64,000 bases of DNA, from the NCBI GenBank assembly GCA_964016885.1, contig OZ024759.1, positions 22,196,001-22,260,000 on the forward strand, written 5' to 3'. The notes beneath the pieces are model-generated. The model ran no database searches, had not been told where the DNA came from, and saw nothing but the letters and a program-made list of their open reading frames with translations. Positions 22,824 to 23,588 of this stretch are shown one piece after another (position 1 is the stretch's first letter; each line of letters opens with the position of its first letter). The position numbers and the translations under genes are program-made. Source of the stretch: Eledone cirrhosa. Its lineage: Eukaryota.

Positions 22824-23588
22824 TCAGGGTGTGTGCCGCCGACAAAATGACAAATGATCTTCCGAGATGGATGGCCAGCGACACCCGTTGCAAATTAGAG
22901 GAATGATCAAATGTTTTTGCGAACTCCAAAAACAATAAGCCATATCATTGGAATCCGAGCCAATCTCATCATAGATATCGCTGACCAAGTTCTCAAAAGA
23001 GTATAACTTGCCGAACTCTGTCATATATTCGCGAAACAGTTTGCTTAAATGGCTAGATAAGCTCTTGTCTTTATACATATAAGCAACACTAAAATACTTT
23101 TCCTTCTCAAAATAACATGTACATTTTTTAGATTCATCTTTGTTGTTGTTTCTAATTAGGAAAACAAGTGTTGGCCTTTCTTTAGTTATTTCGTTAGCTG
23201 TTTCCTGAACTTCACACTTTATCGATTTAAACAACTTTTTCAATGTTTCAGCTTCCTCAGCATCATTGCTGTCTATAATCACATTCAAGTAAGATTCGCA
23301 TTTAAATGGATAAGAGTAGAGAAGGTGAACTAAGTGATCATTGTTGCTTTTCTTTAAACTCGAAATCAGCTTATCAATTATGTCAGTGCTTTTGCTGTCG
23401 CTTTCATACAATTTTTTAAATATGAGATCGTGTAAGAAATACACATCAGATATTTTTCCAGAATCTCCAGACGGTATAAAGTCGTCCCATTCTTCAAAAA
23501 AAGTTTCTTTCTCATTTAATTTCTTACAAAATTCCCACTTAATATTTTTAAACATTTCCAGGTAATCTTTTCGAGGGATAGTACACAT
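22824..23588 (-). CDS. Intronless 254-aa protein; putative CARD/death-fold + degenerate caspase-like domain
   Basis: 765-nt non-repetitive ORF with an in-frame TAA 7 codons upstream of the ATG and a splice acceptor (tttttaacag|) at 23645-23646. Domain call rests on by-eye motif similarity only. Confidence 0.7.
   Translation of the reverse strand: MCTIPRKDYLEMFKNIKWEFCKKLNEKETFFEEWDDFIPSGDSGKISDVYFLHDLIFKKLYESDSKSTDIIDKLISSLKKSNNDHLVHLLYSYPFKCESYLNVIIDSNDAEEAETLKKLFKSIKCEVQETANEITKERPTLVFLIRNNNKDESKKCTCYFEKEKYFSVAYMYKDKSLSSHLSKLFREYMTEFGKLYSFENLVSDIYDEIGSDSNDMAYCFWSSQKHLIIPLICNGCRWPSISEDHLSFCRRHTP

Follow-up and report, generated by a model that had tools for sequence, protein, structure and literature searches.

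Here, we describe P0001, an open reading frame (ORF) of the octopod Eledone cirrhosa that, together with its relatives P0002 and P0003, is best read as a member of an unannotated pseudo-caspase family in octopods that lies beyond Pfam detection. Judged from a structural model of P0002, this family is caspase-derived, and the active-site motif QxCxG is absent from all three proteins. We lean slightly towards the reading that P0001 is a non-cutting decoy, which would be recruited through its helical domain, pair with a real initiator caspase, and tune the activation of that caspase.

Reading frame, transcript signals and surroundings

The stretch of DNA analyzed here (the window; 64,000 nt) is repeat-rich animal sequence. 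The preliminary description had reported a clean 254-amino-acid ORF without naming a strand; the ORF lies on the minus strand, with its ATG at 23588 and within a stop-free frame of 260 codons (Table 1), and every peptide quoted in that description occurs in the P0001 translation as written. The plus strand over the same interval is full of stops, and the remaining five frames have 10 to 31 stops each. Given the base composition, ~6e-6 frames of this length are expected by chance per window. The P0001 frame ranks fourth among the 19 frames of at least 150 codons in the window, the top three being simple repeat, and is the longest stop-free stretch once simple AT repeats are set aside. The coding sequence is intronless, and all anchors common to the relatives fall within this one ORF.

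A splice acceptor had been flagged at 23644, and an acceptor signal is indeed present, with 23645 as the last intron base. In post hoc counts, two sites in the window combine an acceptor at a relaxed pyrimidine cut-off of 9 with ACTAAC, and 36 sites are counted with a looser branch motif. In-frame stops follow this acceptor 5' of the ATG, and all three frames are closed between the two; an upstream exon joined at 23645 would therefore be non-coding. A second AG immediately 5' of the ATG could in principle splice to a coding exon, but this is disfavored because P0002 and P0003 begin at about the same place. AGGTRAGT occurs five times in the window, the candidate donor being one of these, and chance alone would place 0.1 such sites in its interval. 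These signals suggest a two-exon gene model with a non-coding first exon and a single coding exon.

Because P0001 lies on the minus strand and a FAH-family gene lies on the plus strand to its right, the two are arranged head-to-head. The stretch between them mostly contains 14-20 CpG per 400 nt versus a median of 5. The candidate first exon of the FAH-family gene, with a candidate ATG at 26886 on the plus strand, has no Pfam match; we take the gene at 26886-41197 to be FAHD2-like. On the other side of P0001, the plus-strand segment 15011-15178 is presumably the last exon of the SCAMP gene.

Table 1. Coordinates of P0001, its parts and the neighboring features in the window
Feature	Position	Strand	Basis
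P0001, uninterrupted coding sequence, 254 aa	22824..23588	-	Frame analysis
Helical N-terminal domain, probable death-fold prodomain (residues 1-93)	23310..23588	-	Models and identities
Truncated large-subunit-like part (residues 98-147); no catalytic His/Cys position filled	23148..23297	-	Alignment and homolog model
Short inter-subunit linker (residues 148-164)	23097..23147	-	Position inferred
Small-subunit-like part (residues 165-229), ends in the common W-x4-HLI motif	22902..23096	-	Identities and shuffles
C-terminal tail (residues 230-254), absent from homologs	22827..22901	-	Alignment
Candidate 5' untranslated exon part, 56 nt, stops in all three frames	23589-23644	-	Sequence
Candidate splice acceptor and branch-like CTGACTAAC (23668-23676)	23645..23676	-	Sequence signals
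Candidate donor AAG/GTGAGT of the non-coding first exon	26135..26143 (about 26140)	-	Consensus match
Candidate polyadenylation signal ATTAAA, ~107 nt past the stop	22712..22717	-	Sequence motif
CpG-rich stretch, candidate promoter common to the P0001 and FAH-family genes, head-to-head	24600..26600	.	CpG counts
FAH-family gene, exons	26886-27065, 31001-31243, 37601-37795, 41045-41197	+	PF01557 in three exons
SCAMP gene, exon, left of P0001	3218-3370	+	PF04144, E 4.6e-4, under the curated cut-off
OGG1, OGG_N and start of HhH-GPD, most of the protein in one ~200-codon exon	52179-52883	-	
MITE-like element, 276 bp, downstream of the P0001 gene	22338..22613	.	10-bp terminal inverted repeats

The MITE-like element is flanked by an 8-bp duplication with seven of eight positions alike; based on its hallmarks, we take it to be of the hAT type, and it is probably incidental to the P0001 gene. 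It begins just beyond the candidate 3' end, and AATAAA signals occur within it on the minus strand. At 23727-23751, ~80 nt on the upstream side of the splice acceptor, a pair of terminal-repeat ends from this family lie back to back with 1 nt between them. That a larger transposon with outer inverted ends at 22338 and 23738 had captured the ORF was set aside as less likely, the left end at 22338 already pairing with 22613 and having its own flanking duplication. An Rfam search of positions 20000-28000 of the window gave no match. Elsewhere in the window, we observed a 121-bp unit repeated in tandem 34 times (56457-60572; 98% alike, many units with open frames), a further array of 7.3 x 96 bp (61235-61934), a local duplication with a spacing of 558 nt (18589-19401; identical short frames at 18700/19258 and 18589/19147), and a nearly pure AT microsatellite of more than 2 kb (47773-50057; GC 0.025 in 48001-50000). 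Three mutually related fragments (55361-55921, 41371-41652, and 36733-36969), the longest of which has no Pfam match, presumably resemble the end of a LINE reverse-transcriptase ORF.

Relatives of P0001 and the caspase fold

Using phmmer against 1,835,955,588 representative proteins, P0001 gave two matches at E<=1e-3. P0002 (341 aa) is matched with an E of 2.8e-15 and 36% identity, and P0003 (GAB1607690.1, a hypothetical protein of Argonauta hians, 290 aa) with an E of 9.3e-8 and 32% identity; P0004 is a one-residue variant of P0002, both deriving from Logan contigs of ~1.3 kb. The homology of P0002 and P0003 to P0001 spans the whole length. A lack of conservation in related species, which the preliminary description had named as grounds for rejecting its proposal, was thus not observed. 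In shuffle tests of the N-terminal and C-terminal blocks, none of 1000 shuffles reached the score against either relative (four comparisons); for residues 97-135 of P0001, the signal is weaker (2/1000 versus P0002 and 35/1000 versus P0003). In the pairwise alignment with P0002, the part up to residue 131 has an E of 7e-17 and residues 161-228 an E of 1e-7 (pairwise E-values).

Residues 1-93 are the best-conserved part of P0001, with 35/90 and 33/85 positions identical in P0002 and P0003, respectively, and ~39% identity in all three pairs, while residues 165-229 have 24/65 and 18/65 identities. By part, identity is ~39% in the prodomain, 28-37% in the small-subunit half, and 23-32% in the former catalytic half. 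Common to the three proteins in the small-subunit half are the motifs L-x-K-x-F-x2-Y-x-T, Y-x-FE, and W-x4-HLI. Identities of 32-36% among relatives would fit either very fast evolution or weak constraint.

Profile searches did not detect this family. None of the four proteins matches PF00656 at E<=10 with the HMMER filters on, and only chance-level matches came from searches of Pfam and PDB sequences, for which the queries were P0001, P0002, the alignments, and the N-terminal alignment on its own. A word-indexed homolog search returned none of 456 candidates for P0001, only P0003 (1/4029) for the alignment query, and only P0002 itself (1/293) for the caspase region of P0002; because this search missed relatives that phmmer found, its blanks say little about the range of the family. 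None of 587 pattern matches from metagenome scans was confirmed.

The single-sequence AlphaFold model of P0001 has a pLDDT of 38.6, and fold searches with it gave no usable match, nor did the ESM Atlas with P0001. Because this model is unusable, its fold searches are meaningless, and we infer the fold of P0001 through homology. P0002 was modeled with a three-sequence alignment; the mean pLDDT is 48, only one of the five models exceeding 36, with values of 60-80 over most of residues 100-200 and below 50 at residues 302-341. In this model, the caspase alpha/beta fold, with a large- and a small-subunit half, spans residues from about 90 to 340. Of the Foldseek matches, 32 had E<=1e-3, and those listed were caspase or cFLIP throughout. 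In a VIA comparison with 48,161 chains, caspases or cFLIP-L took ranks 1-8, with a Z of 11.8-12.5 and 167-193 residues aligned at an rmsd of 3.2-4.2, and ranks 9-20 were other clan CD folds (legumain, metacaspases, MALT1, GPI transamidase, CHAT protease); Raptor followed at rank 23, and the first unrelated fold had a Z of 7.8. A repeat fold comparison gave a Z of 13.7 with caspase-3. Independently of the model, all 10 of the best family-bearing ESM Atlas matches of P0002 belonged to the caspase family or clan, with a molluscan caspase-7-like cluster at rank 1 and cFLIP clusters at ranks 2-3; these leading clusters had scores of 0.91-0.92 and 149-154 features in common with P0002. Over the matches as a whole, the number of common features was 138-154, fewer than the 170 usual among true members of a family. 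P0001 is taken to be caspase-derived because its alignment with P0002 takes in the start and the end of the caspase-fold region. Thus, the caspase derivation put forward in the preliminary description is supported through P0002 by Foldseek, VIA, and the ESM Atlas, and the caspase order of secondary-structure elements that it had read in P0001 is found in the model of the full-length homolog, that of P0001 itself being too poor to show it.

Catalytic site, large-subunit deletion and N-terminal domain

P0001 has no [ST]HG motif and no His in residues 89-179, in agreement with the earlier proposal of a catalytically dead protein. The sole THG among the three proteins is at residues 242-244 of P0003, within the small-subunit half, and at the strand where the His of SHG is expected, P0002 and P0003 read LLVILCQI and MLFDLTMG, respectively. 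After the KPKL-type strand, the position of QACxG reads IRNNN in P0001, INSKR in P0002, and TYKIS in P0003, in a register that combines known motifs with the strands of the P0002 model, the fold tools giving no residue pairs. Cys156 and Cys158 of P0001 lie ~10 residues beyond the strand and off the catalytic position.

Based on the alignment and the homolog model, residues 98-147 of P0001 would comprise, in order, a strand, a helix, a strand, a short helix, and one strand. The anchors SY and L-x-K-x-F enclose 88 residues in P0001, 121 in P0003, and 195 in P0002. In the large-subunit part, P0001 thus falls 33 residues short of the Argonauta protein, which bears out its description as a miniaturized caspase, and this shortfall probably corresponds to one strand-helix unit. 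P0002 and P0003 keep two central strands between these anchors, whereas P0001 has a single one, RPTLVFLI. In an ungapped 10-residue sliding comparison, the top-scoring placement of RPTLVFLI is on the KPKL strand in each relative (10 and 11), and apart from one-step shifts no alternative exceeds 3; a 15-residue piece agrees with this placement for P0003 and is uninformative for P0002. MAFFT, however, puts RPTLVFLI on the earlier strand instead. On balance, the suggestion that the His-bearing segment was deleted is weakly favored. In one respect the preliminary description needs correcting: the longer P0002 and P0003, with both strands, also lack the catalytic residues, so the loss of catalysis probably preceded both the divergence of the three proteins and the deletion in P0001. 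The two central strands adjoin in a parallel sheet in the caspase fold. With one unit of ~33 residues removed, the sheet might therefore stay continuous as a five-strand core; the domain might also be destabilized. We also observed that the inter-subunit linker of P0002 is disordered and comprises ~70 residues (203-272), compared with ~10 in P0003 and ~17 in P0001.

The N-terminal unit is one domain of ~90 residues in all three proteins, with no tandem DEDs, and is all-helical in the models of P0001 and P0002 (four to five helices, pLDDT 40-55). Searched in isolation against Pfam and PDB profiles, it gave no death-fold match, and the fold lists, filled by the caspase domain, contained no death-fold chain. 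The helical character stated in the preliminary description is seen in both models, while a CARD is not supported over a DED. With whole P0002 as the ESM Atlas query, clusters bearing DEDs ranked 2-4, and the one at rank 6 was 56% CARD. DEDs carry the motif E/D-RxDL, according to excerpts of PMC4558505; at the position equivalent to RxDL by eye, the three proteins read NDHL, NSDL, and NHKL, with the Arg in none of them and the Asp in one. Judged by eye against known patterns, a DED appears to suit the final three helices and the conserved SY at the end of the domain no less well than a CARD. We put the chance that the domain is a DED at about even; a CARD seems doubtful, and another death fold or an unrelated helical domain just as doubtful.

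Proposed function, alternatives and origin

The small-subunit half forms the dimer surface in caspases. Retention of the prodomain and the small-subunit half while the catalytic half erodes is the pattern expected of a binding-only protein. In the favored decoy mechanism, an initiator caspase, plausibly caspase-8-like with one DED, would have been duplicated, possibly by retroposition, to give the founder of the family, and catalysis would have been lost before P0001, P0002, and P0003 diverged. The P0001 lineage would then have lost one strand-helix unit of the large subunit, giving a five-strand core, with the prodomain and the small-subunit half kept through the deletion. Transcribed from the head-to-head FAH-family promoter through a non-coding first exon, P0001 may compete for FADD- or CRADD-like adaptor platforms and/or heterodimerize with a caspase, and it would most likely dampen death or immune signaling. 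By analogy, P0001 would most likely act like cFLIP-L or the insect decoys in lowering the activation of a partner caspase; decoys that enhance are also cited in parts of the literature. As a tentative extension of this mechanism, P0001 might represent an octopod cFLIP-like brake independent of that of vertebrates, i.e., a retroposed, fast-evolving pseudo-caspase with one DED, the five-strand core of which still folds and dimerizes.

Four other explanations were weighed. The best placed among them, which we nevertheless regard as unlikely, is that P0001 is a prodomain-only regulator, comparable to cFLIP-S and CARD-only proteins, with its caspase half a shrinking remnant that does not dimerize. 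The superior conservation of the N-terminal domain and the variation of the large-subunit half from 88 to 195 residues between common anchors are as this explanation predicts; however, the small-subunit motifs are kept in all three proteins and the frame is open to its end. Less probable again is a decaying duplicate or retrocopy that is now free of selection in E. cirrhosa, the deletion being a step of this decay. Such decay would accommodate the large in-frame deletion, the unshared C-terminal tail, the low identity, and the transposon ends near P0001 on both sides, but sits badly with 254 codons free of stops and frameshifts despite ~65% amino-acid divergence from the relatives, and with intact acceptor, donor, and polyadenylation-like signals. 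At least as improbable is a caspase-derived scaffold with a role unrelated to caspase control, possibly as a pathogen bait in an arms race: while the divergence past Pfam detection and the presence of non-apoptotic caspase-fold scaffolds such as Raptor in the fold list are in line with this, P0001 keeps the architecture of prodomain and caspase domain of initiator caspases, and the closest folds to the P0002 model are animal caspases. Finally, that the C-terminal two thirds of P0001 are not caspase-derived and the resemblance is misassigned is hardly credible, for although no fold or profile search matched P0001 directly, the caspase-fold region of P0002 aligns to it at either end, with the pairwise E-values given above.

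The decoy reading has counterparts in known systems. The precedent for a pseudo-caspase regulator is cFLIP-L (PMC4558505 and PMC11121540, in part). Like the P0001 family, cFLIP-L (CFLAR) combines a helical prodomain with a caspase-fold domain that lacks the catalytic Cys, and its structure (PDB 3h13) ranks second for the P0002 model (Z 12.4, 174 residues aligned, rmsd 3.6). It differs in having tandem DEDs, as opposed to one prodomain of ~90 residues, and in that there is no detectable sequence match, and P0001 is a single coding exon with ~33 large-subunit residues missing. Likely, the P0001 family and cFLIP originated independently. The bivalve proteins Cg8-like A-C and Mg8-like are also molluscan and have one prodomain and a caspase domain, but, according to excerpts of PMC7836458, they retain a QxxQG-type active-site motif; their prodomain is a DED, as that of P0001 may be. 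In caspase-9S and Bombyx mori Caspase-5b, the prodomain and small subunit are kept and the catalytic region is removed, as in P0001; according to sections of PMC3141678, caspase-9S is a dominant-negative inhibitor, and these forms arise by exon skipping from an active gene, whereas P0001 is a single-exon gene of its own that has lost this region permanently.

Dipteran decoy caspases were reportedly treated by Bryant et al. in 2010. They are lineage-specific inactive duplicates and are said, in portions of PMC3141678 and PMC7768685, to regulate other caspases; they are described as carrying substitutions in critical residues, whereas P0001 has moved past profile detection and part of its fold is deleted. 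According to excerpts of PMC3591282, the Caenorhabditis elegans caspase homologs CSP-3 and CSP-2 are reported to inhibit apoptosis, as P0001 might, and CSP-3 lacks an active site; the same excerpts state that deletions of CSP-2 and CSP-3 had no effect in pharyngeal cell-death assays. P0001 differs from CSP-3 in retaining a prodomain and part of the large subunit.

CSP-3 consists of the small subunit only and is not known to have a prodomain. Vertebrate pseudo-caspases set the threshold between death and survival, and decoys have been described in insects and nematodes. In the literature searched, which included few subscription journals and no supplements, we found no description of a cephalopod pseudo-caspase, and the available text of PMC11463336 does not list, under these terms, any inactive caspase or pseudo-caspase. 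Since the P0001 family escapes Pfam, surveys based on caspase profiles would miss it.

As to its origin, the founder of the P0001 family was presumably a duplicate, possibly a retroposed one, of an initiator caspase; the most plausible parent is a caspase-8-like gene with one DED, and bivalves carry such genes (PMC7836458, in excerpt). In mammals, a retrogene can consist of an intronless copy that uses the CpG-rich promoter of a neighbor and adds a non-coding exon (PMC4772013, in part). The layout of P0001, which is intronless, near a CpG-rich promoter, and preceded by a candidate non-coding exon, would fit this route. With respect to marks of retroposition, there is no poly(A) remnant within 220 nt past the P0001 stop, and no flanking duplication was found; nor was a second copy of P0001 found within the 64-kb window. 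In a BFVD search, the best match was an ascovirus caspase (E 2e-6). A viral origin was rejected: the match reflects the common fold, and a host gene is favored because of the relative in the argonaut genome and the splice signals.

If functional, P0001 would offer octopod biology a regulator of apoptosis or immunity that can be tested, and the principle of cFLIP would have arisen independently in these animals. Moreover, the deletion in P0001 would show how much of the caspase core is dispensable once catalysis is dropped, and its five-strand core, if real, would be a natural minimal caspase scaffold.
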